A stretch of DNA of 64,000 bases from the sequence record MH992122.1. One strand, 5' to 3'. Under the pieces are notes generated by a model. It was not told the origin of the DNA. It did no database searches and saw nothing but the letters and a program-made list of their open reading frames with translations. Position 1 is the first letter of the stretch, and each line of letters opens with the position of its first letter. This document shows, piece after piece, positions 13,155 through 45,395 of this stretch. This DNA is from Escherichia phage OLB35. A program made the translations under genes and the position numbers.

Positions 13155-13625
13155 TTAATCATGTTTCCACACCCCATCGGTATTTGACCAAAGTCGCTGA
13201 TTATCTGATCCTCGCCACAGCTTTTTGGTCGGAAGATTTTTCTCATACTTCCCATCAATAATAACATCAACATATTTAAGCATTTCTAGCTGTTTAATAT
13301 CTTCAAACTTATATCCTGTCCACAACCAAATGCTTTTATTGGGATAAAAATTTTTTACTGTTTGAACAATGCAATGAATAACATCTCGATTGTCAGGATA
13401 GAGAGGGTCTCCTCCAGATATAGTTAATCCTTCTATATAATCATTATTCAAACATTCAATTAATTGTTCTAGTGTTTCACCAGTGAATGGAATACCATTT
13501 CTAGCATTCCATGTTGATTTATTATAACACCCTTCGCATTTATGCAAACACCCTGTAACGAAAAGAACAGTCCTGCAGCCCGGGCCATTCACAAAATCGC
13601 AAGGATAAAATCTATCATAATTCAT
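13155..13625 (-). CDS. nrdG: Anaerobic ribonucleotide reductase activating protein NrdG (radical SAM)
   Basis: CxxxCxxC cluster (GCLHKCEGCYN); sits directly downstream of nrdD. Confidence 0.85.
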   Translation of the reverse strand: MNYDRFYPCDFVNGPGCRTVLFVTGCLHKCEGCYNKSTWNARNGIPFTGETLEQLIECLNNDYIEGLTISGGDPLYPDNRDVIHCIVQTVKNFYPNKSIWLWTGYKFEDIKQLEMLKYVDVIIDGKYEKNLPTKKLWRGSDNQRLWSNTDGVWKHD

Positions 13626-15439
13626 TGGTGTTTAACCCTATGCATGATTTCTTTATTTTTACCGAGATTAAATCCGCGTTCGTTCGGATTTCCCAAATAA
13701 CCGCATGTCCTTCTTATAGTGTTCATCTTTTTAGGATCAGTTTCTCCACAAACTGAACAAACAAATCCGTTTTCAGTAGGAGTCATTTCATGAGTACTTC
13801 CGCATGTAAAACATTTATCCACTGGCATATTAACACCAAAATAATCTAAATGTTGTGCAGCATAATCCCAGACAGCCTCAAGACCCTTTAAATTGTTTTT
13901 CATATCTGGAAGTTCAACATAAGAAATGTGACCACCTGTCGCAATGAAATGATATGGGGCTTCGCGAGAAATCTTTTCAAACGGAGTGATATTTTCTTCT
14001 ACTGAAACATGGAAACTGTTAGTGTACCAGCCTTTATCAGTAACATCTTTTACACTTCCATATTTTTCAGTATCAAGTTTACAGAAGCGATAACAAAGGT
14101 TTTCAGCAGGAGTAGAATATAAGCTAAAAGCAAATCCAGTTCTTTCAGTCCACTGTTTAAGATGAGCATTCATTTTAGTTAAAATTTCTTGTCCAATATC
14201 ACGACCAACAAGAATATTCAATTCATGAATACCAATGTATCCTAAAGACACTGAACTTCTACCGTTTTTAAATAACTCAATTATATCGTCATCAGGTTTA
14301 AGACGAACCCCGAATGCACCTTCTTGGTAAAGAATAGGAGCAACAGTAGCTTTAACTCCTTTTAAGGAACCAATTCTACACATCAAGGCTTCAAAGCACA
14401 GATCCATTCGTTCATTGAATAATTCAACAAATTTCTGTTCATTGAACTGTGTTCCAATATAAGAATCTAATGCGATACGAGGAAGATTCAGTGTTACAAC
14501 ACCAAGATTATTGCGACCATCAAGAATTTCATTACCAGTCGAATCTTTCCATACGCTCAAGAAACTACGACAACCCATTGGAGAAACTGGAACTGAAGAA
14601 CCAGTAATAGCTTTATTATTCTTAACCGAAATAATGTCAGGATACATTCTTTTGCTTGCACATTCTAACGCAAGTTGTTTAATATCATAGTTTGGATCAT
14701 CTTTATAAAGATTAACACCTTCTTCAACAAACATAACAAGTTTAGGAAAAATAGGAGTTATTCCATCACGACCGAGACCTTTAATACGATTTTTCAGAAT
14801 TGCTTTCTGAATCATTCGTTCAGTCCAATCAGTTCCAGTACCAAATGTAATTGTTACAAAAGGCGTTTGTCCGTTTGAACTAAAGAGAGTATTTACTTCA
14901 TATTCATAAGCTTGGAATGCGTCATAGACATCTTTTTCTGTTTTGGATTGAGCATAATTCAGAATGTCCGGTATTTGCCATTTTTCTGCATCTTCAACAT
15001 GTTTAGCGTATGTACGTTTAACATAAGGAGAAAGTACTTTATCGACATTCGCAAATGTAGTTCCGCCATACTGATGTGAAGCAACTTGTGCAGTAATTTG
15101 TGCCATAATTGCAGTAGCAACACCAATCGATTTAGGCGTTTCAATTTGAGCATTGCCTAATTTAAATCCGTTCTCAAGCATTCCTTTTAAATCTACTAAA
15201 CAACAATTAGTAAATGGCAATGATATACTGTAATCTAAATCATGAAAATGAATTAACCCGGCATTATGAGCATTTACAATATGGCTTGGAAGAATACTAC
15301 AAGCGATATGTTTAGAAACAATACCGGCCATTAAATCTCTTTTTGTTGGAAAGACACGAGAATCTTTGTTGGCGTTTTCGGTATTTAATTCTTTATCTTT
15401 ATTTGAAATAAAATATAATAGTTTATATACTACATTCAT
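13622..15439 (-). CDS. nrdD: Anaerobic ribonucleoside-triphosphate reductase NrdD (glycyl radical enzyme), intronless
   Basis: 605 aa; C-terminal glycyl-radical motif RRTCGYLG and CxxC zinc ribbon; one contiguous ORF. Confidence 0.9.
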   Translation of the reverse strand: MNVVYKLLYFISNKDKELNTENANKDSRVFPTKRDLMAGIVSKHIACSILPSHIVNAHNAGLIHFHDLDYSISLPFTNCCLVDLKGMLENGFKLGNAQIETPKSIGVATAIMAQITAQVASHQYGGTTFANVDKVLSPYVKRTYAKHVEDAEKWQIPDILNYAQSKTEKDVYDAFQAYEYEVNTLFSSNGQTPFVTITFGTGTDWTERMIQKAILKNRIKGLGRDGITPIFPKLVMFVEEGVNLYKDDPNYDIKQLALECASKRMYPDIISVKNNKAITGSSVPVSPMGCRSFLSVWKDSTGNEILDGRNNLGVVTLNLPRIALDSYIGTQFNEQKFVELFNERMDLCFEALMCRIGSLKGVKATVAPILYQEGAFGVRLKPDDDIIELFKNGRSSVSLGYIGIHELNILVGRDIGQEILTKMNAHLKQWTERTGFAFSLYSTPAENLCYRFCKLDTEKYGSVKDVTDKGWYTNSFHVSVEENITPFEKISREAPYHFIATGGHISYVELPDMKNNLKGLEAVWDYAAQHLDYFGVNMPVDKCFTCGSTHEMTPTENGFVCSVCGETDPKKMNTIRRTCGYLGNPNERGFNLGKNKEIMHRVKHQ

Positions 15440-16919: not shown

Positions 16920-17179
16920 TTAAAATATTCTCGTAGTTGGTCAAATCCACCAATGTGACTTCCGTCAGGAGCAAACACTTGAGGCATAGTCAATCCAACT
17001 TGTGATTCACGTCCAAGCTTAACCAGAAGCTCAGCAATTTTCTCATCGTCGAACACACCTTTTTCCGGCATAACATTAATGAATTCGAATGGCTGTTTCT
17101 TAACAGTCAGCAATCGTTTCGCATTATCACAATAAATGCATTTATGAATAGTAGAGTCATACCCGTACACTTTAAACAT
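16916..17179 (-). CDS. nrdC: Glutaredoxin NrdC
   Basis: MFKVYGYDSTIHKCIYCDNAKRLLTVKKQPFEFINVMPEKG... matches T4 NrdC with a CxxC active site. Confidence 0.9.
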   Translation of the reverse strand: MFKVYGYDSTIHKCIYCDNAKRLLTVKKQPFEFINVMPEKGVFDDEKIAELLVKLGRESQVGLTMPQVFAPDGSHIGGFDQLREYFK

Positions 17180-17585
17180 TATTTTTCCTTTCATCGATTA
17201 AATATGCAATGCCAAATACAATACATGTAATAAAACCTGTGATACAGATAGAAACCAACAACACTGTACCAAAGAACCAAATCAAGTTATCTTTAGTAGT
17301 TTGTTTGATATCCATCTCACGAATTTCTATAGCTATCGTATCACCTTTATTCAGAAGCGTATAAAACGATGGCGATACACACCTGTCAAAAACTCGTCCT
17401 TGCTCATCTTTATAGACTGCAATAAATTCTAATTTAGAATATTTTCCTGTAGATTGGCCTGAGATTAATTCCACTACCTCCACAGGAATTACTTTAGTTT
17501 CCATGTAAGTATTCTGACTGTTCCAAATGAATGGAATAATAGCAAAAACTAAAGCTGCGATAAAACAACGAAGGCTATATCTCAT
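17172..17585 (-). CDS. Membrane protein (two predicted TM segments)
   Basis: 137 aa with N- and C-terminal hydrophobic helices. Confidence 0.5.
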   Translation of the reverse strand: MRYSLRCFIAALVFAIIPFIWNSQNTYMETKVIPVEVVELISGQSTGKYSKLEFIAVYKDEQGRVFDRCVSPSFYTLLNKGDTIAIEIREMDIKQTTKDNLIWFFGTVLLVSICITGFITCIVFGIAYLIDERKNNV

Positions 17586-17890
17586 TATAATGTTCTCTCA
17601 AATTTGTGGAAGCATTTACGGCATTTCAATTTCAAGTTATCAGTGGTCCAGTTAACCAGTTGGACCTGGATAGTTCCACATTCCGGGCATGGATGTTTTG
17701 CTGCTGATTTGGCAGCATTTTCACGTCGTTCAACCATTTTCATTATTTCGTTCCATGCTGGAGGAACGAACTCTTCTTCACCGTGGATTTTATCTCGCTG
17801 AACAAATTCAATCTTTGAACTATCGTCAATAAACTTAGCCAAGCCATGATTAGTGCTCATATCAATATCCTCTAAAAGACGTAGTTTCAT
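17585..17890 (-). CDS. Zinc-ribbon protein
   Basis: 101 aa; CPECG...CRKCFHKF four-cysteine motif. Confidence 0.5.
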   Translation of the reverse strand: MKLRLLEDIDMSTNHGLAKFIDDSSKIEFVQRDKIHGEEEFVPPAWNEIMKMVERRENAAKSAAKHPCPECGTIQVQLVNWTTDNLKLKCRKCFHKFERTL

Positions 17891-18840
17891 TATAACACCT
17901 CAATGGCATTTCGTAAACCGTCCGCTTTCGCATTCAGAGCTTTTAACGATTTAGTTTGTTCTTTAATCTGGGCTTCGACTTCTTTCAGACGAGATTTGAG
18001 GTACTCACGTTCTTCTCTCAAGTTGTCAACTTTTTCTACTTTAGGTTCTTTAATAGTCTTAAGTTTATACTCGTTAGGGTTCTTCAGCTTAATTCGGGTG
18101 CGAGAACTGTATAACATTGAACCGTTATCTTCGGATTCGTCGAACGTTTCAACAACATCCATAGTCTCTAACAATGTAATAAGTTTATAAGACAATGAAC
18201 GAACGGTTTTGTTATGCTTATTAATTTCTTCAGCTTTCATGGTACCGAGATTACGTGAGTAGTAATAAGGAACCTGGATATCAATTGATAATGATGCGTT
18301 ACCATTACCGGTCGGTTTGAATACTGCAGTAACCCAATCTTTAACATGAACTTTATTTGTACGACCATCACCGCCCGTGAATAATTTACGAGAATGTTTA
18401 AAAAGCATATTCACTTGGTTATTGAATTCACAAGCAAATTTATCAGCAAATTTAGTTTCAGGAATGGTAGATAACCAATCAGCCAAATGAGTCTTTTTAA
18501 CATCATTAACAATAGTGAATTCAACCAAATCGGTTTTAGATGTCACAGATTTAATAAAGCTCGGCTTCATAAAGTTTTTAATGTTATCGCGAGCTACAGT
18601 AGAAGATAATAAACGAGAACGTTTGAACCATTGAAGCAGTGTCCCTAATGAATGAGAATATGCATTCTGAGTATCTTTACAGATATGATTTTCTTGGCCT
18701 GTGTATGTACCAAAATCGCGAAGAATACCACTTACTACATCTCGGTGTGGAACATCAAATCCTAGTGCACCAGAAGCGCGCTGAGCATGAACGTTAGCGA
18801 TAAGACCGGCAAAGTATTCAATGTAATGTGAACGTGTCAT
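17890..18840 (-). CDS. Hypothetical protein with C-terminal coiled coil
   Basis: 316-aa ORF; C-terminal heptad-rich segment (REEREYLKSRLKEVEAQIKEQTKSLKALNAK). Confidence 0.55.
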   Translation of the reverse strand: MTRSHYIEYFAGLIANVHAQRASGALGFDVPHRDVVSGILRDFGTYTGQENHICKDTQNAYSHSLGTLLQWFKRSRLLSSTVARDNIKNFMKPSFIKSVTSKTDLVEFTIVNDVKKTHLADWLSTIPETKFADKFACEFNNQVNMLFKHSRKLFTGGDGRTNKVHVKDWVTAVFKPTGNGNASLSIDIQVPYYYSRNLGTMKAEEINKHNKTVRSLSYKLITLLETMDVVETFDESEDNGSMLYSSRTRIKLKNPNEYKLKTIKEPKVEKVDNLREEREYLKSRLKEVEAQIKEQTKSLKALNAKADGLRNAIEVL

Positions 18841-18868
18841 AATATTTTCCTCTAGTTAAGATAGATTC

Positions 18869-18897
18869 ATTATACTCCAACCATCCTTGGTTGTAAA
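18869..18897 (-). promoter_or_regulatory. Early sigma70-type promoter (GTTTACA-N17-TATAAT) with a palindromic spacer
   Basis: Minus strand reads GTTTACAaccaaggatggttggagTATAAT about 30 nt upstream of the ATG at 18840. Confidence 0.6.
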
Positions 18898-18902
18898 CTA
18901 TT

Positions 18903-19862
18903 TTATGATTTTAATGCATTCATTGCGTTAAAAAGTTTAGAATACTGCAACTGGAGATTCGTTACAACACTTTGAGCATCACGAAGCTTAGCTTGTGCTT
19001 TGTCAAGTTCAACAGACAGTTGGTCCATAGTGGCCTTGATTTGATTGTAATGGTAATCTTCGACCGGAAGAAGGTCATTAGAAACATTTAGTTTTACTGC
19101 AGACAGTTTGCACACATTTGGCAAACCTTTAAACATTGATTTACCCGAAGTAGAATATGAACCTAGAACTTCAGCATTACCAATTGGGGTTGCAGTAATT
19201 GACGCTTCAAATGTTGCATTTTCCTTTTTAAGATTTTGATAGTATTCAGAGTCTTTGTGCCACCACGGCGCAGGAACCTTTTTACCAATAGATACACGAG
19301 CCTGGATAGCGATATGGCCCTTATTCTTGATAGGGTCGATAATATTAAGCTCACGAGAATAAATTGCTTTAATCTGGTGGATATTATCACCTAAAACTTC
19401 CAACGCTTGGTGGAATACACGAGCAACGTTATCATTCTTAGGTTTATACGTAAGAGTGAACTCGTTCTCACTGATAACCATGATTTCTAACTTATCGTAA
19501 GTATATTTCAAATGTTTCATGTTAATTGCTTGAGGACGAATACGAGAAGCAATGGCCATCAGATTGTTAAGGTTATTCCGGAACTGCTTAGCGAAATATT
19601 GACCTTCACCGCCAATACAAAAATTACGAAGTTTCTGTTTGGCCAATAAACGGCTGAACTCACCATTTTTAATGAACTCTTTAACGGGTGTGTTAGTAAC
19701 GCATTCAAATTGGGTAAACATACGAGAAGTAATCCCATAATATGAACAGATTTCCTCAATCTCTTCAGGAGTCTTTACAGGCATACGGATAGGATTAGGT
19801 CCTGGAGTATATGCGTTCGAGGTAAATTCTTTGATAAGTTCTCTACGTGTAATAAAAGCCAT
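18903..19862 (-). CDS. Hypothetical protein with C-terminal coiled coil
   Basis: 319-aa ORF. Confidence 0.55.
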   Translation of the reverse strand: MAFITRRELIKEFTSNAYTPGPNPIRMPVKTPEEIEEICSYYGITSRMFTQFECVTNTPVKEFIKNGEFSRLLAKQKLRNFCIGGEGQYFAKQFRNNLNNLMAIASRIRPQAINMKHLKYTYDKLEIMVISENEFTLTYKPKNDNVARVFHQALEVLGDNIHQIKAIYSRELNIIDPIKNKGHIAIQARVSIGKKVPAPWWHKDSEYYQNLKKENATFEASITATPIGNAEVLGSYSTSGKSMFKGLPNVCKLSAVKLNVSNDLLPVEDYHYNQIKATMDQLSVELDKAQAKLRDAQSVVTNLQLQYSKLFNAMNALKS

Positions 19863-19888
19863 TTTATATTCCTCATGTTGAAAAATTT

Positions 19889-19917
19889 ATTATACTCCAA
19901 CCATCCTTGGTTGTACA
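19889..19917 (-). promoter_or_regulatory. Early promoter; core identical to the one at 18869-18897
   Basis: Identical ~28-nt core (ttatactccaaccatccttggttgta on the plus strand) upstream of the ATG at 19862. Confidence 0.6.
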
Positions 19918-20913
19918 TCATTCCTTAAGAAGTTTTACTACTTGAATAAGATTAGCTCGTTCTGTTTTATTTTTACCGTTTAAGCCTGCTAATCGTGAGA
20001 TTTCATCGTCAGTCTGTTGAATAGTTACATTAAGTTCGTTAATCAAAGCTTCAAAGTATTTGATTTGCTCAGCATGTTTTGATTCAAATTTCTGAACAGG
20101 AATAACATCTTGGTTCAGTTCATCAATAAGGTCTTTAAGAGCATCTTCTTGGTTGATATCATATTCAACTTCTTTTATTTCTTCAACGAGCTCGTCTTTA
20201 TATCTAACGTCTTTTAGTCCTGGAGCTGGTCCTGAAATCTCTTCTTTAAGAGTACAAACATACCCAATACGGTATCCAATGCCGTCTCGCTTGATATCAA
20301 CTTCGTCGATAAATCCACAATGTTTAAGACCAGAGCCGATTATGTCAAAATATCCTTGACGTCGTCCTTCAAACGTTACACGAACTACTAAGACAGTTTT
20401 ACCACCAACCTTTTGAAGCTCACATTTATAAAAGTCTGTTGAACCTGAATAACGTGGATGAGTTTTAAAGTTCATCTGACGATCTAGGCCCATTTGTAAA
20501 CGTGCTGTTACGGCCATAAAACGTGTTTGGTTCTCGTTAAGATGAGCAACAATCCATTTCAAAGGCATTTTACACTGTTCACGACCGAACAAATCAGTAC
20601 GTCCTAGATTACGCAGGATATTGTTAGAGTTAATCATCGACAGAACGTTAAGTTTATTCAGCGCGCTGAAGATTCCATCAGCCATTGATTTTCCATAACC
20701 TTTACACGCTTTAATAAGTGCTCGCGGCAGATTAGTATAGATTTCAGACGGCATATGAAAATCAAATTTACTAGTCAGTAATTGATGAACTTGGATAGCA
20801 ATTTGCTCGTAATTAAGTGCTCTGCGATCATTATGGTCTTTAAACCACACTTTAATCTGTGAAGCACATAAACCGTTAATTTCATGTTTTACCGCATCAG
20901 ATGTAATACTCAT
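19918..20913 (-). CDS. Hypothetical protein with C-terminal coiled coil
   Basis: 331-aa ORF. Confidence 0.55.
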   Translation of the reverse strand: MSITSDAVKHEINGLCASQIKVWFKDHNDRRALNYEQIAIQVHQLLTSKFDFHMPSEIYTNLPRALIKACKGYGKSMADGIFSALNKLNVLSMINSNNILRNLGRTDLFGREQCKMPLKWIVAHLNENQTRFMAVTARLQMGLDRQMNFKTHPRYSGSTDFYKCELQKVGGKTVLVVRVTFEGRRQGYFDIIGSGLKHCGFIDEVDIKRDGIGYRIGYVCTLKEEISGPAPGLKDVRYKDELVEEIKEVEYDINQEDALKDLIDELNQDVIPVQKFESKHAEQIKYFEALINELNVTIQQTDDEISRLAGLNGKNKTERANLIQVVKLLKE

Positions 20914-20975
20914 AACTATTTCCTCAGATTGAATTGGAACTCAAAACCATTATAACCCGTCCTTGGGTAAAGCGT

Positions 20976-21503
20976 TTATGCGTGAACCGTCTTTAAACGT
21001 TCTTCAAATTTCCGAAGAGTACTAATACGTTCTGCTTTCTGTTTTGTATAGTTTGCAATACGTTCTGAAGTGAGAGCGTATCGTTCGTTTACTGTTTCTT
21101 TCATGAAGTCAGGGATTTCACGAGAAGCTTTAATTTCATCAAACTTGTCGAGTACTGCCTGGTCTTCAGCGATTAAATTTTCGTACATCTCGATATCTTT
21201 CTTGATAAACTCGATATCTTCCTGGGTTACTTTGGATAAACGAGACGCTTTATCCTTTTTGTACTGCTCGTTAGTTTCACGAGACCAGAATAATGTACGT
21301 TTTTTGTTAGTGTTTTTGTAGACTTCCACAATTCCAACTGAATCGATGATAACAATCCAATTCCAGCGAGATTTGAAAATCTGACCTCCGTCCACGGTAA
21401 TCTCGTTATCATAAGCAACGTCATTAAAGAACTTGCTTTGTGCTTCAGATTTAAATTTACCGTCGTTATAATTTACCAGGTTGAAAATATCTTTAGCGTT
21501 CAT
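20976..21503 (-). CDS. Hypothetical protein
   Basis: 175-aa ORF with a Shine-Dalgarno GGAGGT upstream. Confidence 0.55.
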   Translation of the reverse strand: MNAKDIFNLVNYNDGKFKSEAQSKFFNDVAYDNEITVDGGQIFKSRWNWIVIIDSVGIVEVYKNTNKKRTLFWSRETNEQYKKDKASRLSKVTQEDIEFIKKDIEMYENLIAEDQAVLDKFDEIKASREIPDFMKETVNERYALTSERIANYTKQKAERISTLRKFEERLKTVHA

Positions 21504-21530
21504 GTTTTACCTCCAGTAGTTGATAGGTCT

Positions 21531-21559
21531 ATAATAACATAACCATAGACCTTGTAAAC
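21531..21559 (-). promoter_or_regulatory. Early promoter / PeSL-like element
   Basis: Minus-strand TTTACA, ~16-nt spacer, TATTAT; -10 flanked by inverted repeat AGGTCTAT/ATAGACCT. Confidence 0.5.
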
Positions 21560-21561
21560 AA

Positions 21562-21849
21562 CTAAAAGAAACTTTTTTCAGTATTTTTTCCACTGAACCA
21601 AACAGACTTCGGGATTTTTTGTAATTTTTCAGACTTAAGTTTCTCTTCCTGTTCTTTCTTATATACTCCCTTGTCGTACTGGAGCATCTCTAGGGCATTC
21701 TTTTGCAAACGATCTAAGGTAATTAAGGCTTTAGTTTTTCCTTTCAAGGAAGAGTCCTGGCGAACTTCCTCGCTATATTGCATCGTAGAACTAACCATAC
21801 GATGTGCATACAGTTCGACTGCGGCTTTGATTTTTTGCATAAAATCCAT
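21562..21849 (-). CDS. Hypothetical protein
   Basis: 95-aa ORF. Confidence 0.45.
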   Translation of the reverse strand: MDFMQKIKAAVELYAHRMVSSTMQYSEEVRQDSSLKGKTKALITLDRLQKNALEMLQYDKGVYKKEQEEKLKSEKLQKIPKSVWFSGKNTEKSFF

Positions 21850-21987
21850 AACATATCCTCTTTGATTTGTACATCATTATTTTTAAATATTTCTATGCCC
21901 TCAGTAGGTTCCTGGTGTCCTTCTTTGAGGTAAGCCATATGGTTATTAATCTTTATGGCTTTTGTTACCTCAGGACTTCCTGTAAGC

Positions 21988-22980
21988 TTATTTCAGTAAA
22001 GTTACTTCAGAGATTTCCTCCCAACCATCTTTATCAGTTGAAATAAAATCTGCTACATAAAGAGCCGTACGTAATGATACATTGCGAAGACGAGATACGT
22101 TAGCCTTCATCCAGGACAATGCTTTGTACGTTTCAGCATCAGTCAAGCCACGTTTCTGCATCATGTCAGTAGATAATATTACATCTTCAACTCGAACCAT
22201 AATCTCTTCATTAGAGTGTACTCCAAGGTCCAAATACACTGAACGAGATACTAAAGCTTGAAGGTGTGGAGCAAGTTTCGAACCGCGTTCTAACTCTTTA
22301 TCAATATCAACGTTTGTAATGAAAACGATAGTACCTTCAAACTCAAATTCTTTATCGATACCCTTATCATCGAGATAAGATGACGCAGTGCTCCAGCAAA
22401 CTTTGCGTTTATCACCAGTATCTAATGCTGCTTTAAGAAGGTTCAAGATGTCCATATCCGAGAATACGTCAACGTCGTCGATTAAGAGAACGCTGTCTGC
22501 ATCACGGTTGAGCCAAAGTTGTTCGTAAAGGCCAATACCAGAGATTTTACCATTAATGCTTTTGTATTTGATGAAACCGTTATCATTAGCATTATTAAGT
22601 GCTTTATCCAGAGAATACGTCTTACCAATACCGGCTGCACCTGAAATAATGAGTGAACGAATTTTGCCATCGATAATACCATTCGTCATCATGTTCATTA
22701 CTTTAAAGCGTTTGTTGATACGAGTTTTCATATCTTCAGTGCTTTCAACAACTGCAACTGGTGATGTCTCAACTCCTTCCATTACGATGTCTGATTTGAA
22801 GACCCATACTCCACGTTCAGAACCATCAATCATAACGAAAATTTTACCGTCACCTAAGTGGGAACATTCAGGATTAAGCTTTGCCGGGAACCATGTCTTT
22901 GTGGCAACATAAGAACCAGAGATTTCGTTATTACGATAGATACCTTTTTTGATTTGAACGTTGAACATTTTATTCTCCAA
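21988..22980 (-). CDS. P-loop NTPase
   Basis: 330 aa; Walker A GAAGIGKT and Walker B VLLIDDVD. Confidence 0.6.
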   Translation of the reverse strand: MENKMFNVQIKKGIYRNNEISGSYVATKTWFPAKLNPECSHLGDGKIFVMIDGSERGVWVFKSDIVMEGVETSPVAVVESTEDMKTRINKRFKVMNMMTNGIIDGKIRSLIISGAAGIGKTYSLDKALNNANDNGFIKYKSINGKISGIGLYEQLWLNRDADSVLLIDDVDVFSDMDILNLLKAALDTGDKRKVCWSTASSYLDDKGIDKEFEFEGTIVFITNVDIDKELERGSKLAPHLQALVSRSVYLDLGVHSNEEIMVRVEDVILSTDMMQKRGLTDAETYKALSWMKANVSRLRNVSLRTALYVADFISTDKDGWEEISEVTLLK

Positions 22981-23007: not shown

Positions 23008-23036
23008 ATAATAACATGTTTAAAGCAAAAGTAAAC
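23008..23036 (-). promoter_or_regulatory. Early/middle promoter
   Basis: Minus-strand TTTACT-N17-TATTAT; a MotA-box-like TTGCTTTA overlaps the spacer. Confidence 0.45.
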
Positions 23037-23038
23037 AA

Positions 23039-23257
23039 TTATTTGCGACGAGATTTTTTGGTAAGAGGTTGAAAGAACACTGCTTTACCGGCAGGAGTCA
23101 AAGTGACTCGTAATGCATTACCGATTCCCAAGGATGCTTTAACCAGACCTTTAGATTTCAGTTCACCGAATGCTTGACGTTGGTCTGCATTACGAGTGTT
23201 AACCATAAGACCTTTATCACCAGCTTCACGAATCATTTCTAGCATTTTGGTTTTCAT
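23039..23257 (-). CDS. Small basic protein, possibly DNA-binding
   Basis: 72 aa from the internal Met (MKTKMLEMIREAGDKGLMVN...) preceded by GAGGAGAA. Confidence 0.45.
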   Translation of the reverse strand: MKTKMLEMIREAGDKGLMVNTRNADQRQAFGELKSKGLVKASLGIGNALRVTLTPAGKAVFFQPLTKKSRRK

Positions 23258-23346
23258 TTTGTTTTCTCCTCTTGTTTTGATAGGTCCTATAATAACATAT
23301 CCTAAAAGCATGTACACTACTTTTTAAAAATATTTTGACCCCTAAA

Positions 23347-23360
23347 GGGCCCGAAGGCCC
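23347..23360. terminator. GC hairpin (GGGCC-CGAA-GGCCC), bidirectional terminator candidate
   Basis: Perfect 5-bp GC stem with T-rich flanks on both strands, immediately 3' of the nucleotidyltransferase gene. Confidence 0.5.
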
Positions 23361-23363
23361 TTA

Positions 23364-24353
23364 TCATTTATAGTATGAATTATGATTTTCGAGATAGACT
23401 TGCTCAAGGAAATCATCCCAGAAACTCATATCTACCTTTTGTTGCATACCGTTCTTAGCGGCTTGTTCTGACGCGTGTTCAACTTGGTCAACGATATCTT
23501 CTAGGAATTCTTGTACAGTTTTAAACGTATGTTTACCAAGCTTAACATCGAGAATAAATGGAGCATCCTGAAGTGGGTAAACCAGGTCGCCGGTTTTGTA
23601 AATTTCCAATAATTGAAGTCCACCACGACACGCATGACTCAATGCTTTCCAGTCAATACCTTCATTGGCTTCTGCCTTACGAGCACGTTCACCATAGTTC
23701 TCTTCCAGTTTAACCAGGATGGCATTGAACTCTTTATTGGTTAACGTGTCTTGGAATTTACGGTCTAACAGATTATAGAATGTTTGCTTACCTGTTTTCT
23801 CGTTTTCGGTTTCAACCCACGAAGCAAATTCACCTATAGGCAGAACATTCTTCATATGTGATAAACGAATTACTGCACCGTTATCAAAGTATTGTCCCCA
23901 TTCATTAGAACGTTTAAGGGCTTGACGAAGAACAGCCAGTCGAGAACCCTTGACGCCATATTTAGAAGCTTGCTTACGGACATACCCTAAATAAGATTTC
24001 ATGTTAGTGGTATAGAAACGAGACCTGTTATCTTGAATATACTTCCATACATCAGGCAAATCAGATTTAACTACTAGACTTGGTGGAGTGTGAAGCATAT
24101 CTAATGCGACGGTTTCACCATCAGCAGCTAGTTTAAAGAAATATTTGAGACTATACAACTCATGGTCCACGTCGTCTTTTGTGTTCTTAGAAGATGTGTT
24201 ATTCGTGTTCTTGCTCATATGTTCTTTAACGTTACCGGTCAAGATATCACGAGCATGAGGGACATAAATTTCTTTAAAATCGACGTCAGATTCAGGAGTA
24301 GACGTTCCATAAAGGTGGCTACCAAAGTAGCCTTTCATAATTGTTTTCATCAT
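23364..24353 (-). CDS. Pol-beta-superfamily nucleotidyltransferase
   Basis: 329 aa; N-terminal GSHLYGTSTPESDVD fits the G[SG]x9-13Dx[DE] motif. Confidence 0.55.
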   Translation of the reverse strand: MMKTIMKGYFGSHLYGTSTPESDVDFKEIYVPHARDILTGNVKEHMSKNTNNTSSKNTKDDVDHELYSLKYFFKLAADGETVALDMLHTPPSLVVKSDLPDVWKYIQDNRSRFYTTNMKSYLGYVRKQASKYGVKGSRLAVLRQALKRSNEWGQYFDNGAVIRLSHMKNVLPIGEFASWVETENEKTGKQTFYNLLDRKFQDTLTNKEFNAILVKLEENYGERARKAEANEGIDWKALSHACRGGLQLLEIYKTGDLVYPLQDAPFILDVKLGKHTFKTVQEFLEDIVDQVEHASEQAAKNGMQQKVDMSFWDDFLEQVYLENHNSYYK

Positions 24354-25544: not shown

Positions 25545-25651
25545 TTTACCATACTCGTTTCAATAAGATTCACTATGCCGTTTACCATGTTATAAGTAAA
25601 CATCGGATAATTGTATTGTACTACAACATAAGCGATAAGCAAAAGTTTCAT
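25541..25651 (-). CDS. Hydrophobic micro-protein (36 aa)
   Basis: MKLLLIAYVVVQYNYPMFTYNMVNGIVNLIETSMVK; Shine-Dalgarno GGAGAACAAA; its TGA overlaps the next ATG (ATGA). Confidence 0.35.
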   Translation of the reverse strand: MKLLLIAYVVVQYNYPMFTYNMVNGIVNLIETSMVK

Positions 25652-25679
25652 TTTGTTCTCCGTTCGTTTTGGTAGGACT

Positions 25680-25708
25680 ACTATAACATAATCCTACCAA
25701 GATGTAAA
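25680..25708 (-). promoter_or_regulatory. Early promoter / PeSL-like element
   Basis: Minus-strand GTTTACA-N17-TATAGT; -10 embedded between arms GGTAGGA/TCCTACC. Confidence 0.5.
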
Positions 25709-25945
25709 CTACCGATTGTGTTTTAAATGTTGATAAAGTTCTTCAACTTGTTTAGGGTCCAAAACAATTAGGTCATTTTCTTGACGAAGATAAATCCATC
25801 CCTTATCACCAGGTCCATTTTTACAAAACATCACCGTCGTCATATCATCATCTTCAGCGCTTTCAGGTAAAAGTTCAAGTACACCGTCTTCAGATTTTCC
25901 AGTATAATCGTAAAGCATAATATCCTCACATAATCTCGTTAACAT
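25709..25945 (-). CDS. Hypothetical protein
   Basis: 78-aa ORF. Confidence 0.45.
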   Translation of the reverse strand: MLTRLCEDIMLYDYTGKSEDGVLELLPESAEDDDMTTVMFCKNGPGDKGWIYLRQENDLIVLDPKQVEELYQHLKHNR

Positions 25946-26172: not shown

Positions 26173-26200
26173 AAAAAGCCCCAACCATAAGGAAGGGGCT
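26173..26200 (-). terminator. Rho-independent terminator
   Basis: Minus-strand AGCCCC-UUCCUUAUGGUU-GGGGCU hairpin followed by a U5 tract. Confidence 0.6.
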
Positions 26201-35451: not shown

Positions 35452-35757
35452 TTATTTTCCTCGACATTCTTTAATGAAATTTTCTAGATTGGTAGATTCA
35501 ATAGCTTTTTTACGAGCTTCTGCGTGTTCTTCTTCAGACAATTTACATTTATAATTAACCCAGACGTTATGGTCAAAACTAGTCGTGGCATATAATAACA
35601 AAGCCCCGACGAATAATAAAAATGGTGATAAGAATACAAAACCAGGAACACCATCCATATCGTAAGCCTTTTGTAATACTGCAACAGAAAGAGCTACGTA
35701 AAAAGGTGATACAAATATAGTTAAAAGACCAATTCGGTTGGTTTCGCCTAATTTCAT
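35452..35757 (-). CDS. Membrane protein
   Basis: 101 aa with two hydrophobic helices. Confidence 0.5.
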   Translation of the reverse strand: MKLGETNRIGLLTIFVSPFYVALSVAVLQKAYDMDGVPGFVFLSPFLLFVGALLLYATTSFDHNVWVNYKCKLSEEEHAEARKKAIESTNLENFIKECRGK

Positions 35758-35785
35758 AATATTCTCCTCATGTTTTAATAGGACT

Positions 35786-35814
35786 ACTATAACATAGTCC
35801 TATAATTGTGTAAA
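35786..35814 (-). promoter_or_regulatory. Early promoter / PeSL element
   Basis: Minus-strand TTTACA-N17-TATAGT; -10 between inverted arms ATAGGACTA/TAGTCCTAT. Confidence 0.55.
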
Positions 35815-35827
35815 CAGTTTTGCGAAA

Positions 35828-36784
35828 TTATTTGAAAGGTTTTACCATATGGAAATTTTGTTTAAAACGTTTTACATAATCGTCATGTCCTAAGCTTTGG
35901 TACATACTTACAACTTTGCTGTAGTTTTCCCAAGCGTATTCACGGAACCAGCCTGACGTGATTGAAGTACAGACTTTTTCTAATGCCATCATAAAACTAT
36001 CACGTGGATGGATTTCAAAGTTATTAGGAATCTGAGAACGTTCTAACGCTAGTACACATGATTCTTCGTATACGCCGGCTAATTTGACCATTTCTGGTAA
36101 TGATTCGAACTTCTCGCGTGAGGTCATGACTTCAGAACCATCTTTCATATAAAATGTATACGCTGGACGGTCTGTTAGTGCAATGGCTTCGTGAATAGTA
36201 TCATGGTCATACGTATAGATGTCATCTTTAAAGAATGCGCTTTTAGAAGTGTCAAGAACTGGGTGAGCATAGTTCAAGGTTTCTTTCTGGCGTTTCAGCA
36301 TAATTTCAGTAAGTTCATCGTTCAGTGTAACACCTTTACCACGAAGATACTGAATATGGTTCATAGTCTTTAAAAAGAATGGATTATTTTTCTTGAAACG
36401 ATGAGACATCTTAATTGCAAGACACATCTCAGGAGTTGCCCAGTAAAACCCGTTCAAACGGTCTTTAGTCAAATTTTTCTTGGCGTATTTTAAAAGGTCA
36501 TAAGAAGACGTGAAATCTTCAGGAGTGAGTTCACCGACTAATTCACGGACATTAGTGATTGCCGGAACAATATATGCTTCAAAATGAGTTTCGCGTCCAT
36601 TATGGAAGCATTTGAAAACTTGGACATCAGGGTTATCTTGGTGAACATATACACCCATCATTTGATTTTTGAATACATTCCAAGAACCTTGGTCCGCAAT
36701 AAAGTCCCAATCACTATTTTTGATAGCGCTAGAATCAATAAGGCCGTGATAGTGAAGTGCACGAGAACCAATAACTAACATCAT
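35828..36784 (-). CDS. Hypothetical protein (318 aa), candidate enzyme
   Basis: Large ORF (MMLVIGSRALHYHG...) with no motif I can assign. Confidence 0.55.
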   Translation of the reverse strand: MMLVIGSRALHYHGLIDSSAIKNSDWDFIADQGSWNVFKNQMMGVYVHQDNPDVQVFKCFHNGRETHFEAYIVPAITNVRELVGELTPEDFTSSYDLLKYAKKNLTKDRLNGFYWATPEMCLAIKMSHRFKKNNPFFLKTMNHIQYLRGKGVTLNDELTEIMLKRQKETLNYAHPVLDTSKSAFFKDDIYTYDHDTIHEAIALTDRPAYTFYMKDGSEVMTSREKFESLPEMVKLAGVYEESCVLALERSQIPNNFEIHPRDSFMMALEKVCTSITSGWFREYAWENYSKVVSMYQSLGHDDYVKRFKQNFHMVKPFK

Positions 36785-36812: not shown

Positions 36813-37064
36813 TTAAATTTCGCGACATGCGATATTATATTCATCCCAGAGGTCGTCATGTGAAGCCTCTACCAATGGAACGATTGTGCCGTTTATGTCT
36901 TCATTATAAGGGCAAATTGTACAGTGCGCATCTTCGAATCGGATGCCTTTGTGTTCAGATTTTTTATAACGCATATCGAATATCTTTGCAAACTTTTCAC
37001 GAGTAATAGTTTTAGCAACTACTTCTGTTCCTATACTTTCGTAATAAACCATTGTTGTCTCCAT
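36813..37064 (-). CDS. Cys/His-rich small protein
   Basis: 83 aa; HCTICPYNEDINGT...CREI. Confidence 0.45.
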   Translation of the reverse strand: METTMVYYESIGTEVVAKTITREKFAKIFDMRYKKSEHKGIRFEDAHCTICPYNEDINGTIVPLVEASHDDLWDEYNIACREI

Positions 37065-37080
37065 TTAATTTGATAGGACT

Positions 37081-37109
37081 ACTATAACATAGCCCTATCT
37101 TGTTGTAAA
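37081..37109 (-). promoter_or_regulatory. Early promoter / PeSL element
   Basis: Minus-strand TTTACA-N17-TATAGT with flanking GATAGGACT/AGCCCTATC arms. Confidence 0.5.
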
Positions 37110-37114
37110 CTGTT

Positions 37115-37312
37115 TTAGCAAGAATAACTAGATGATACCCAGCCTTGAACAGTAATACTATTATTTGATAACGAGATTGCGTCCTGGAGATTCAGACCTG
37201 CATTATCTTCAATCCACAATGTAACTTCTTCACGCTCTTCGGTTGCAATCTGGAACAGGTTTTCTAGAGCAGCTACTGCCGTACGTACAGCACAATCTAA
37301 TTCACGAGACAT
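37115..37312 (-). CDS. Small protein, WVSSSxxC-tail family, member 1
   Basis: 65 aa ending ...VQGWVSSSYSC. Confidence 0.5.
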   Translation of the reverse strand: MSRELDCAVRTAVAALENLFQIATEEREEVTLWIEDNAGLNLQDAISLSNNSITVQGWVSSSYSC

Positions 37313-37910: not shown

Positions 37911-37935
37911 TTTCTACATTCCTTAATAAAGTTTT

Positions 37936-38321
37936 CGATTGTTTCATTTTCACGTTTAGCTAGGAGTTCATTATAACTAATCATTTGAGAAGCGTAAACA
38001 GCATAAATTCAGTTAAGGCTTTTGCATCTTATTTCCTTAACGAATTCCATAGCTTCTTCATATTCATACTTTTTAACAGCTTCGATTGTTTCATTTTCAC
38101 GTTTAGCTAGGAGTTCATTATAACTAATCATTTGAGAAGCGTAAACAACGCCGTCAATAAGAAATCCAACTAATCCAAAGGCAAATCCCATGCCAATACT
38201 CATAATAAAAATTAGAATGTTCTCACCAAGAGAAGGCCAGCATAAATTCAGTTAAGGCTTTTGCATCTTATTTCCTTAACGAATTCCATAGCTTCTTCAT
38301 ATTCATACTTTTTAACAGCTT
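37936..38321. repeat. Segmental duplication, units A-B-A-x-B (A ~65 bp, B ~83 bp)
   Basis: A at 37936-38000 and 38083-38147; B at 38001-38083 and 38239-38321, near-identical; unit A carries GTTTAC-N17-TATAAT on the minus strand. Confidence 0.8.
38009..38203 (-). CDS. Chimeric small membrane protein sharing its C-terminus with the next gene
   Basis: 64 aa; last 22 aa (VKKYEYEEAMEFVKEIRCKSLN) identical to the end of 38248-38640 because of repeat unit B. Confidence 0.4.
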   Translation of the reverse strand: MSIGMGFAFGLVGFLIDGVVYASQMISYNELLAKRENETIEAVKKYEYEEAMEFVKEIRCKSLN

Positions 38322-38640
38322 CATCATACTGAGCTTGGGCTTTTGCGCACTGAACTTTCCATTCTCTTAATCGGGCTCTGTGATGACGTCCTTGGTACCA
38401 ATATCCCATCCAGTTAATAGGCATTAATAAAAACGGTACAATAAGTGGTGCGACGAACATTAATGAAAATGCTGCATCAGACGATATAACTTCACTAGAA
38501 TCTAAAACGGCTCCTATAATCATAAAGATTAAAAATGCTAAAGCTAAAATAGGGCCAAATAGTACTTCATTTGGGATTAATTTACGCTTGTATTCATACG
38601 CCCAGGGCTTACTTGGCATGTATAGGGTTGGCTTTGACAT
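38248..38640 (-). CDS. Membrane protein
   Basis: ~130 aa from the internal Met (MSKPTLYMPSKPWAY...); two TM helices. Confidence 0.5.
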   Translation of the reverse strand: MSKPTLYMPSKPWAYEYKRKLIPNEVLFGPILALAFLIFMIIGAVLDSSEVISSDAAFSLMFVAPLIVPFLLMPINWMGYWYQGRHHRARLREWKVQCAKAQAQYDEAVKKYEYEEAMEFVKEIRCKSLN

Positions 38641-39924: not shown

Positions 39925-40152
39925 TTATTTTTTAATCAAATTGACATAAAACTTGGCGTCTTCCGGGTGCATGCCTTCGCAGTATTCTTCAACCATGAAC
40001 TTCTTAACAGCTTCATAAGGACCACTCAGATTAAGCTCAGTTGTCCAAAACTTGGAATCTTGGGCTGAATCGATACGAACTTCAGGGTGTCGGTTGCGAA
40101 TAACTTCTTCGGTGTATTCATAATCAACGACATCAATACTAACTTTAGCCAT
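39925..40152 (-). CDS. Hypothetical protein
   Basis: 75 aa: MAKVSIDVVDYEYTEEVIRNRHPEV... Confidence 0.5.
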   Translation of the reverse strand: MAKVSIDVVDYEYTEEVIRNRHPEVRIDSAQDSKFWTTELNLSGPYEAVKKFMVEEYCEGMHPEDAKFYVNLIKK

Positions 40153-40700
40153 TTTGTTTCTCCTCTGTAGTTGATAAGTCTTAACTATAGTATCACCATC
40201 ATTGGTGTTTGTACATCATTATTTTTAATTTTTCCAACTTAACAACCTTCAGCCAAGATACAACAGAGTTTTTATCTGAGGATTCAAATTCAGGCATTGG
40301 ACTTTCACCGCGAATAACTTCTTCGGTGTATTCATAATCAACGACATCAATACTAACTTTAGCCATTTTGTTTCTCCTCTGTAGTTGATAAGTCCTATAG
40401 TATCACCATCATTGGTGTTTGTACATCATTTATTTTTAATTTTTCCAACTTAACAACTTGTAGTGTCCTTCATTCATACGTGGTTTATCCCAAGAAATAC
40501 TAATATATGATTCGCCATCAATAGCTTTTTCTTCACCACCACCACTGATAGTCCTCTGTAGTTGATAAGTCCTATAGTATCACCATCATTGGTGTTTGTC
40601 AACTATTATTTTTAATTTTTCCAACTTAAAACTTGTAGTGTCCTTCATTCATACGTGGTTTATCCCAAGAAATACTAATATATGATTCGCCATCAATAGA
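40085..40700. repeat. Three tandem copies of a ~160-230-bp module (gene 3' end, promoter, leader, gene 5' start)
   Basis: Core ...ttttgtttctcctctgtagttgataagtc(c/t)ta...tagtatcaccatcattggtgtttgt... recurs at ~40153, ~40366 and ~40549 with flanking duplicated coding ends. Confidence 0.8.
40199..40366 (-). CDS. Chimeric 55-aa ORF created by the duplication
   Basis: MAKVSIDVVDYEYTEEVIRG...; first 19 aa identical to the start of 39925-40152, then diverges. Confidence 0.3.
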   Translation of the reverse strand: MAKVSIDVVDYEYTEEVIRGESPMPEFESSDKNSVVSWLKVVKLEKLKIMMYKHQ

Positions 40701-43839: not shown

Positions 43840-44265
43840 TTTATTTCTCCTTTACTCATTTTGTTTTGATAGGACTACTATAACATATCCATATAGGCTT
43901 GTATATCTTTATTTCAAATATATTGCGTATTTTTTATAGCCACCAGGCTCGTGTCGAAGACCTTTATCATTCGCAAAACGTTGAATGTTATTGAACTGGT
44001 TTTCATCGAATGATGATTTAATCTTAGCTTTAGATCCTTTAGTTATAGAAATAAACATCTCGGAAGACCCTTTCTTAAAGTCTGATGCAGATACTTCAAC
44101 ACCGTTCTTAGCAAGTGACCTCAGAATTGCATCTGCGTACACTTCATATGTGTCGAATATGAAAAAGTTTTGTTAGCTACCAAGCGTGATATATTGAGAA
44201 TCAGTTCAGCGCGTTTCATTTTATTTCTCCATTTACTCATTTTGTTTTGATAGGACTATTATAAC
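43819..44265. repeat. Direct repeat pair (~65 bp each) carrying a PeSL promoter plus the first codons of a gene
   Basis: gaatcagttcagcgcgtttcattttatttctcc...gataggact...ataacat at 43819-43885 and 44198-44265; the second copy starts a 32-codon ORF sharing MKRAELI with 43654-43839. Confidence 0.75.
43909..44142 (-). CDS. Hypothetical basic protein
   Basis: 77-aa ORF. Confidence 0.45.
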   Translation of the reverse strand: MYADAILRSLAKNGVEVSASDFKKGSSEMFISITKGSKAKIKSSFDENQFNNIQRFANDKGLRHEPGGYKKYAIYLK

Positions 44266-44286
44266 ATAGTCCTATCGGCATGTAAA
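44258..44286 (-). promoter_or_regulatory. Early promoter / PeSL element with perfect 10-bp inverted repeat around the -10
   Basis: Minus-strand TTTACA-N17-TATAAT; GATAGGACTA ... TAGTCCTATC arms flank the -10. Confidence 0.6.
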
Positions 44287-44290
44287 CTAC

Positions 44291-44578
44291 TTACAGAAGA
44301 GTTTTTGCAATAATTTTAAGCTGAGCTACAGAAATGTGCTTAGCTTTAAACAGTGCAGTCTCTTCAGCCGGAGAGATAACAATAGTAGCGCCATCTTTCT
44401 TAGCAGACCATCCATCCCCTAAGTAAACAGTACCTTTTACTTCTTCGCCGTCAGCCAGACTAATCATTGGTTTGCCCTCACGTCCTTTATTTGCTTTAAT
44501 AACTTCGGAAGTAAGGGTTGCTTCAGTCAGAGTAGAAACGTTAGCATCAGGTGATATAAATTCTTTATAGGTTTTCAT
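44291..44578 (-). CDS. Internal protein I-like (capsid-targeted)
   Basis: Starts MKTYKEFIS...; 95 aa; sits between the tRNA region and 57B as T4 ipI does. Confidence 0.6.
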   Translation of the reverse strand: MKTYKEFISPDANVSTLTEATLTSEVIKANKGREGKPMISLADGEEVKGTVYLGDGWSAKKDGATIVISPAEETALFKAKHISVAQLKIIAKTLL

Positions 44579-44624
44579 TTTATTTCCTTGAGGCTGTTTA
44601 TTTGATAGGATGATAGTAACACAC

Positions 44625-45395
<771 letters not shown>

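Follow-up and report, generated by a model that had tools for sequence, protein, structure and literature searches.

In the 64,000-nt stretch of Escherichia phage OLB35 DNA analyzed here (record MH992122.1; hereafter the window), three consecutive genes, which we call A, B, and C, correspond to members of the T4 nrdC.3–nrdC.6 group. We lean toward reading them as an array of autonomous early and middle cassettes that encode non-enzymatic coiled-coil binding proteins, probably directed against host defenses, with shuffling of the kind described for promoter-early stem-loop (PeSL) elements. The surrounding block (17890–22980), in which every gene lies on the minus strand, appears from sequence comparison to be the Mosigvirus version of the T4 nrdC.3–nrdC.6 segment, part of the nrdC–mobD hyperplastic region. 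The window matches the RB69-like (Mosigvirus) class of T4-type phages; its best match is Shigella phage SHSML-52-1, at 98.7% along 5.9 kb, and coverage of the region reaches 80% or more in 141 records.

Comparison of the window proteins with the annotated T4 nrdC–mobD segment, using BLASTP, Pfam, and PHROG, assigned the three genes as follows:

Gene A, 17890–18840, minus strand: 316 aa; T4 nrdC.3 ortholog (56% identity, BLASTP E 1e-118); phrog_1435; homologues with PF26897.
Gene B, 18903–19862, minus strand: 319 aa; DUF7235, the T4 NrdC.5 family (PF23882, E 2e-121); 25.6% identity to T4 NrdC.5.
Gene C, 19918–20913, minus strand: 331 aa; nrdC.6 family (29% identity to T4 NrdC.6, E 3e-18); phrog_2257; homologues with PF26899.

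These are the three similar-sized minus-strand open reading frames (ORFs) of the original prediction, which had been made from the sequence alone, and their extents stand as first described. Gene A is a member of the nrdC.3/.4 branch. Gene B matches PF23882 over profile positions 1–307 of 307 at 405.5 bits (gathering score 30 bits), compared with 420.6 bits (E 5e-126) for T4 NrdC.5 itself, and its RB69 homologue bears the name NrdC.5. The T4 order.6–.5–(.4)–.3 is preserved in the window, from which a copy of nrdC.4 is absent. Ordinary orthology with T4 genes, listed in the original prediction as an outcome that counts against it, is thus largely what the block displays: nrdC.3, the nrdC.5 and nrdC.6 families, nrdC.8, nrdC.9, and nrdC.10.

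Pairwise BLASTP among A, B, and C found no similarity (best E-value 3.5), in agreement with the earlier remark that the three share no obvious identity. Evidence for a common origin came from 39 T4-like loci around the conserved ATPase gene (nrdC.10), which were taken from viral contigs (808 kb in all) and their ORFs clustered. Every T4-like lineage sampled carries 1–4 proteins of 270–390 aa in one slot, with gene order conserved across the 39 loci; the slot lies between nrdC.9 (or a 260-aa family) and nrdC.2, and all 66–70 members are found 0.9–5.2 kb downstream of the ATPase. Within the slot, nrdC.3 and nrdC.4 share one BLAST cluster. Comparisons between slot clusters with hhalign gave probabilities of 70–94% over 130–270 columns of the globular, non-coiled-coil part (75.5% for nrdC3/4 versus nrdC5, 91% for nrdC5 versus c6, 93.5% for nrdC6 versus c6, and 94% for nrdC3/4 versus c19), against at most 2% for the ATPase, the nucleotidyltransferase, the 260-aa family, and six other clusters compared with them as controls. 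An iterative hidden Markov model (HMM) search seeded with residues 1–262 of A, the coiled coil having been removed, converged at 60 ORFs, all of them slot members, and B was the only additional match up to E = 10. A search seeded with residues 1–250 of C reached 70 ORFs, including A (5e-57), B (4e-41), and T4 NrdC.3–.6; here the database had been tripled with reversed and shuffled decoys, of which 0 of 3682 were recruited, together with no control ORFs, and control seeds ran without drift.

These comparisons argue strongly that A, B, and C form one homologous superfamily with T4 nrdC.3–.6, and the three proteins are very probably anciently duplicated, strongly diverged paralogues. In the literature searched, we did not find nrdC.3,.4,.5, and.6 described as a single family, the genes themselves having long been annotated.

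The members share an architecture: a helical-then-alpha/beta domain of about 250 residues, a conserved proline, and a C-terminal coiled coil. Collinear motifs run through the family alignment (SRLLS..A...L..F; F..N...L...ARL..G.DR; AL..M..V; and P ahead of the coiled coil). No conserved polar residue was found across this alignment, in which the best columns are hydrophobic, Gly/Ala, or the Pro before the coiled coil. In proteins A and B, the C terminus is a clean heptad segment that begins at residue 280 and 285, respectively, with LIVM at 70–80% of a/d positions and 0–8% of the others; the corresponding AlphaFold2 (AF2) models show long C-terminal helices (A 275–315, B 268–318), and a PDB profile search matched only GCN4-, BST2-, and prefoldin-type coiled coils, all on the C-terminal ~65 profile positions. 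In C, the helix is broken by a short turn (..RLAGLNGKNKTE..) and its coiled-coil character is less clean, so that the coiled-coil ending once proposed for all three proteins is well borne out for A and B and only partly for C. In T4 NrdC.6, little of the C-terminal helix remains. The globular domains received no annotation from the PDB profile search, and NCBIfam and PADLOC gave nothing meaningful.

Structure prediction added little. The AF2 model of A with 29 homologues reached a predicted local-distance difference test score (pLDDT) of 54 and that of B with a mixed 51-sequence A + B + C alignment 36, both too poor for fold assignment, although the order of secondary-structure elements was alike in these low-confidence models. 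Foldseek with the poor A model returned other T4-like proteins of 300–375 aa at probabilities of 0.84–1.0 and a template-modeling (TM) score of only ~0.2. Two of these matches, BFVD entries E5EYP0 and E5EYP1 (locus L053, 17220–19224), are adjoining proteins, 318 and 348 aa long, from a distant T4-like phage; one of the pair (cluster 27) was recruited by the decoy-controlled HMM iteration too, so the superfamily may reach more distant Straboviridae.

An exhaustive HMMER search with a mixed profile gave 8 matches in 1.84 billion representatives, only the three families and fragments, and no bacterial or non-T4-like relatives; hence there is no annotation to borrow from outside T4-like phages. 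Word-indexed homologue searches likewise returned close relatives only (33, 19, and 4 proteins). Identity to T4 is 26–29% for B and C versus 77–83% for nrdC.8,.10, and.11, and among close relatives the ratio of nonsynonymous to synonymous substitution rates (dN/dS) is 0.14–0.22 for A and B versus 0.01–0.07 for C, the ATPase, and nrdC.11. Alleles of B are bimodal, at least 87% or at most 25% identical with no intermediates among 50,697 phage records. The family thus appears to evolve fast and in mosaic fashion, positive selection not being demonstrable from these sequences.

Two further observations concern the contents of the slot. In one Tequatrovirus contig (locus L037, 14382–15414), two ORFs (193 and 158 aa) take the place of an intact nrdC.4 homologue, which would point to a pseudogene or a sequencing frameshift and is consistent with dispensability. 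In single-member genera, the slot also holds a conserved family of 256–284 aa, with 19 members about 1.1–2.7 kb downstream of the ATPase (loci L027–L034, L039–L052, L054, and L057); none of the profile comparisons made, with the superfamily or otherwise, linked it to another family.

Each of the three genes appears, from its upstream sequence, to be an autonomous cassette with its own predicted promoter:

Promoter A, 18869–18897, minus strand: early, sigma-70 type; −35 TTTACA at 18892–18897; −10 TATAAT at 18869–18874; predicted start near 18862.
Promoter A hairpin, 18878–18893, minus strand: spacer CAACCA-AGGA-TGGTTG, followed by GGAG at 18875–18878; present in the minimum-free-energy fold.
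Promoter B, 19889–19917, minus strand: early type; −35 TGTACA at 19912–19917; −10 TATAAT at 19889–19894; same hairpin as A, at 19898–19913; predicted start near 19882.
Promoter C, 20949–20977, minus strand: middle type; MotA-box-like AAACGCTTTA at 20968–20977; 13-nt spacer; −10 TATAAT at 20949–20954; predicted start near 20942.
Promoter C spacer element, 20957–20966, minus strand: CCAAGGACGG; stem ACCC/GGGT.

Promoters A and B share an identical stretch of exactly 27 nt, TACAACCAAGGATGGTTGGAGTATAAT (18869–18895 and 19889–19915), which leaves gene B bracketed by direct repeats 1020 bp apart; an exact repeat of that length in 64 kb has a chance expectation of ~1e-7. Both genes had been credited with the same promoter of about 28 nt, and the 27 identical nucleotides support this, but the −35 hexamers differ (TTTACA versus TGTACA), so that GTTTACA lies upstream of A only. 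Promoter A matches the consensus at 11 of 12 positions, the best in the region, and promoter B at 10 of 12. Recent tandem duplication as the source of this identity is ruled out by coding sequences that are less than 20% identical. Since the coding sequences have diverged to below 15–20% identity while 27 promoter nucleotides are unchanged, the promoter identity would reflect a regulatory cassette that has been conserved or has undergone gene conversion. The duplication first suggested by the matching promoters therefore survives as an ancient event in a superfamily shared with T4 nrdC.3–.6, not as recent copying of gene plus promoter.

The three promoters do not form one class: A and B are of the sigma-70 early type and C of the MotA-box middle type. 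Coordinated regulation through the palindrome, the other possibility raised in the original prediction, would thus have to span two classes. The MotA rule calls for (a/t)(a/t)(a/t)TGCTTtA at a distance of 12 ± 1 bp before a good −10, and promoter C conforms to it with one mismatch (AAACGCTTTA, 13 nt, TATAAT). T4 PnrdC.7 is a mapped MotA-dependent middle promoter with its start site at 53325 (Hinton 2010 review, PMC2988021, Table 1), and the T4 counterpart of promoter C, cgctttataCCAAGGATGGtataat, ends 7 nt upstream of that start. Promoter C is thus the sequence counterpart of PnrdC.7.

A shared element sits inside all three spacers. The core CCAAGGAYGG occurs three times in the window, versus 0.08 expected, each time inside the spacer that separates the −35 or MotA box of promoter A, B, or C from its −10. 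Throughout the related loci (808 kb), nearly every copy of the core that stands in a promoter context belongs to a superfamily gene or to the nrdC.7–nrdC.6 unit. In six independent promoter variants, drawn from three lineages, all 18 of the pairs that flank the core (three per variant) were Watson–Crick (permutation p ~0.001), with 2, 4, and 3 pair types at the three positions; covariation was counted by script in a fixed register, as the MAFFT alignment had shifted the register to line up TATAAT. Flanks that co-vary and stay complementary, keeping a 5–8-bp hairpin in three lineages, indicate that the inverted repeat is under selection as a pairing element. A promoter hairpin shared by early and middle classes was not found in the literature searched. 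As RNA, the element forms a 6-bp stem with an AGGA loop, unremarkable in folding energy (z −0.25 to −2.2) and without a U tract, on which grounds an intrinsic terminator was judged improbable and set aside. The hairpin precedes its own start site and could therefore act at the RNA level only in read-through transcripts.

Alternatively, the palindrome CCA-AGGA-TGG could be the operator of a dimeric DNA-binding protein of phage or host that switches the paralogues on or off together. Three lineages and two promoter classes have kept the 10-nt core, and a protein bound there, with the −35 or MotA box on one side and the −10 on the other, would block RNA polymerase. We nevertheless regard an operator as unlikely: the flanks vary while staying complementary (AA/TT, AT/AT, AG/CT, AC/GT, TA/TA), as expected for base pairing and not for base-specific recognition, so a hairpin fits better than a sequence-specific operator. 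Furthermore, the half-sites of the core are just 3 bp, Pfam and PHROG assignments reveal no candidate regulator in the block, and, as discussed for MotA, the major groove of T4-type DNA contains glucosyl-hydroxymethylcytosine.

About equally improbable is that the hairpin with the following GGAG-UAUAAU is a RegB/S1 processing site in read-through RNA, at which cleavage would leave the upstream product with a protective hairpin and uncouple the cassette mRNAs. GGAG directly follows the stem in early-type copies of three lineages (18875–18878 and 19895–19898 in the window), running into UAUAAU, and GGAGUAUAAUA fits the consensus GGAGRAYARAA at 9 of 11 positions (PMC1702504); the position of the hairpin upstream of its own start, where only read-through transcribes it, also suits such a site. 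However, GGAG is absent from the middle-type copies (C and T4 PnrdC.7) and from the T4 nrdC.4 copy, and the match is partly forced by a sequence that doubles as the −10 box. The resemblance is speculative.

The absence of conserved catalytic residues, an oligomerization module, variable copy number, and early or middle expression together suggest that A, B, and C belong to a family of binding-type inhibitors of host factors, and these factors are most likely defense proteins. The closest precedent is T4 NrdC.5, an early protein that counters the SIR2 defense Dsr1 and that, expressed alone from a plasmid, restored infection by a deletion mutant (Srikant et al. 2022, PMC9391042). Under this reading, the proteins would oligomerize through the coiled coil, and the variable domain would bind and neutralize host factors, most probably anti-phage defense proteins as with NrdC.5 and Dsr1; different paralogues may serve different targets or hosts. 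The promoter-hairpin repeats would act in a PeSL-like manner, insulating or processing read-through transcripts and supplying short homologies for the gain, loss, or replacement of single cassettes, as could happen to B between its two 27-nt repeats. A bolder version, in which T4-like phages keep a rapidly diversifying NrdC.3–.6 battery of inhibitors, each tuned to one immunity protein, with the CCAAGGAYGG hairpin both controlling expression and driving cassette exchange, is a tentative proposal that we think rather unlikely to be correct.

Several observations weigh against the array of defense-directed cassettes. An anti-defense phenotype comes from a single T4 member, NrdC.5, which is 26% identical to B and lies outside the nrdC.3,.4, and.6 branches. 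Values of dN/dS are below 1 throughout, and C is strongly constrained among close relatives. Gene B is present in nearly all Mosigvirus records, and no B-less Mosigvirus was identified among them, which gives no sign of recent cassette mobility. Whereas described PeSLs have their stem-loop next to the promoter or enclosing the −10, that of A, B, and C is within the spacer, and a terminator role is doubtful for a hairpin that is short, energetically ordinary, and devoid of a U tract. Neither AF2 model is usable as evidence for a common fold of A, B, and C, and the Foldseek matches have low TM scores. Finally, direct hhalign of three narrow, Mosigvirus-only alignments gave no signal (probability at most 1.3%, effective number of sequences 1.2–1.5), and A- and B-seeded HMM iterations stall in the larger decoy database, so the homology depends on intermediates and iteration. 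Profile comparison among the three proteins, proposed with the original prediction, was thus informative at the level of clusters and iterative HMMs and uninformative for narrow alignments.

These last results would be expected if A, B, and C were unrelated orphan ORFs, alike only in size and a C-terminal coiled coil, with the superfamily a product of profile drift and the promoter repeat a case of ordinary PeSL shuffling. Such a view also accommodates the lack of pairwise BLAST similarity and of a common AF2 fold, as well as the listing of three separate families in Pfam and PHROGs. It is nonetheless quite unlikely, given that iterations free of the coiled coil brought in only ORFs of the same slot, with neither decoys nor control ORFs, and that cluster-level hhalign separated the globular parts (75–94%) so clearly from controls. 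Moreover, the top segment of the weak A1–A2 comparison is the F..F.N..N.L motif, which aligns family-wide, and the promoter motif is common to the three genes and found nowhere else in the window. We therefore retain the array of paralogous cassettes as the preferred reading.

The remainder of the block is as follows:

Gene D, 20976–21503, minus strand: 175 aa; T4 nrdC.8 ortholog (83% identity); phrog_2274.
Promoter D, 21531–21559, minus strand: early, of the common T4/PST PeSL type; stem AGGTCTAT...ATAGACCT around the −10; fold −13.6 kcal/mol, z −2.0.
Gene E, 21562–21849, minus strand: 95 aa; nrdC.9 family (DUF7203; PF23833, E 8e-23); 35% identity to T4 NrdC.9.
Gene F, 21988–22968, minus strand: 326 aa; T4 nrdC.10 ortholog, P-loop/AAA+-like ATPase (77.5% identity).
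Promoter F, 23008–23036, minus strand: early; GTTTAC-N17-TATTAT.
nrdC.11 counterpart, 23364–24353: RlaP nucleotidyltransferase.

In coordinate order, the array is indeed followed, as was first noted, by two small genes and by a protein with the Walker A and B motifs GAAGIGKT and VLLIDDVD. The word "after" misleads with respect to transcription, which runs in reverse: the genes being on the minus strand, the ATPase is transcribed ahead of A, B, and C. In gene F, Walker A occupies codons 110–117 (22618–22641) and Walker B codons 160–167 (22468–22491), and the columns of both motifs are invariant in 10 homologues spanning genera. Its earlier description as a 330-aa Walker NTPase is right as to the motifs and wrong as to length: in the alignment, the first residue of T4 NrdC.10 pairs with residue 5 of the 330-aa ORF, and a GGAG Shine–Dalgarno sequence lies 7 nt upstream, which places the true start at ATG 22968 (326 aa) and not at TTG 22980. 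T4 NrdC.10 has been predicted to be an AAA-type ATPase (Nolan et al. 2006, PMC1524935); gene F shares its Walker A and B motifs, and nothing substantive differs between them. Pfam matches of gene F all fall below their cut-offs (AAA_22 at 22.1 bits, cut-off 27; AAA_16 at 20.5, cut-off 32.6; nSTAND3 weak), NCBIfam gave nothing, and PDB matches had E 0.11 or worse. The protein is 66–100% identical across genera, with dN/dS of 0.01–0.05, and its gene has its own PeSL-type promoter. The nrdC.10 and nrdC.11 products, proposed originally as comparison partners for the three array proteins, are unsuitable, nrdC.10 being the ATPase itself and nrdC.11 the neighboring nucleotidyltransferase.

That A, B, and C form one multi-component machine with this ATPase, and possibly with nrdC.8 and nrdC.9, is suggested by adjacency, by gene order conserved in 39 of 39 loci, and by early or middle expression from the same strand, but it is highly improbable: the loci were gathered via the ATPase, so that co-occurrence is not independent evidence; the strongly constrained ATPase contrasts with paralogues present in 1–4 copies and down to at most 25% identity; every gene has its own promoter; and T4 NrdC.5 by itself, from a plasmid, restored infection on Dsr1 cells. 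A role for the ATPase as part of the array system was rejected, its evolutionary rate and promoter organization being unlike those of the array; it is a separately conserved neighbor, and beyond adjacency nothing links it to the array.

Some features around the block differ from T4 or recur in the window. A homologue of T4 nrdC.7, which encodes a membrane protein, lies at 17172–17585 (41% identity), downstream of nrdC.2, whereas in T4 the gene is placed between PnrdC.7 and nrdC.6; this small gene has thus relocated between genera. The nrdD gene (13622–15439) is one unbroken 605-aa ORF, while T4 nrdD is interrupted by a group I intron with I-TevII, with mobC adjoining. Between nrdC.11 and a small gene at 23039–23317, a G+C hairpin, GGGCC-TTCG-GGCCC, with a T-rich run (23337–23362) is, as judged by its sequence, the sole convincing candidate for an intrinsic terminator in the block, and similar elements, AAAAAGCCCC...GGGGCT, are found again at 26173, 41008, and 41553.

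Promoter repetition extends well beyond this block. Of the 49 families of direct repeats in the window, most are promoter cassettes in which, as in PeSLs of the T4/PST type, a stem surrounds the −10; this is the PeSL phenomenon already known. Early-promoter repeats of 60–90 nt (GTTTAC...ATAGGACTATGTTATAGTAGTCCTATC) occur on the minus strand at 25624–25725, 35730–35831, 37025–37126, 43855–43922, 44202–44303, and 44591–44658; with a 7–8-bp stem around the −10 (T4/PST-type PeSL), they are far commoner than the CCAAGGAYGG subtype. Short tandem duplications are also present, at 37934–38322 and 40096–40699: units of 67 and 85 nt are 100% identical, 147 and 239 nt apart, and units of 88–91 nt in the same regions are 91–99% identical, about 175–214 nt apart, with promoter and gene-start sequence included. 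These look like recent segmental copies of tiny early genes.

The ordinary part of these findings is that the genes are long-annotated T4 ORFs, with promoter repeats that belong to the known PeSL picture of a hyperplastic, anti-defense-rich region; the particular part is a stem inside the promoter spacer, tied to one protein family. The nrdC–mobD region of T-even phages is emerging as an anti-defense island: in addition to NrdC.5, NrdC.1 counters Septu (bioRxiv 10.1101/2025.11.20.689424) and gp49.2 counters OLD (PMC13096335). If NrdC.3–.6 are one family, at least three more T4 proteins, along with alleles in therapeutic Mosigvirus and Tequatrovirus phages, become candidate immunity inhibitors and host-range determinants. 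The combination of a variable domain and a coiled coil without conserved polar residues offers a concrete handle on the mode of action of NrdC.5, and a co-varying hairpin in early promoters and in a mapped middle promoter provides a small test case for the role of T4-type promoter stem-loops.

Among known systems, T4 NrdC.5 is closest to B in its Pfam family, length class, position in the gene order, C-terminal coiled coil, and early expression signals, although the two differ in nearly three-quarters of their residues. Promoter C resembles T4 PnrdC.7 in its CGCTTTA box, CCAAGGAYGG spacer, TATAAT, and 13-nt spacing; the T4 unit comprises nrdC.7 and then nrdC.6, whereas promoter C directly precedes the nrdC.6 homologue, and its box starts CGCTT in place of TGCTT. 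Dependence of promoter C on MotA and AsiA is a prediction. The PeSL cassettes of T4-type phages (Arbiol et al. 2010, PMC2839356; Comeau et al. 2014, PMC4122927) provide the broader parallel, with short repeated promoter and stem-loop elements that flank non-essential ORFs in the hyperplastic region, as in the window. In PeSL work, the bracketing of a single gene by direct repeats, as seen here for B, yields deletions and mini-circles, and a middle-promoter version (PmSL) has also been described. The A/B/C element departs from PeSLs in its constant AGGA loop and CCA/TGG closing stem, without a G/C-rich stem or U tract, and in the association of CCAAGGAYGG with one protein family.

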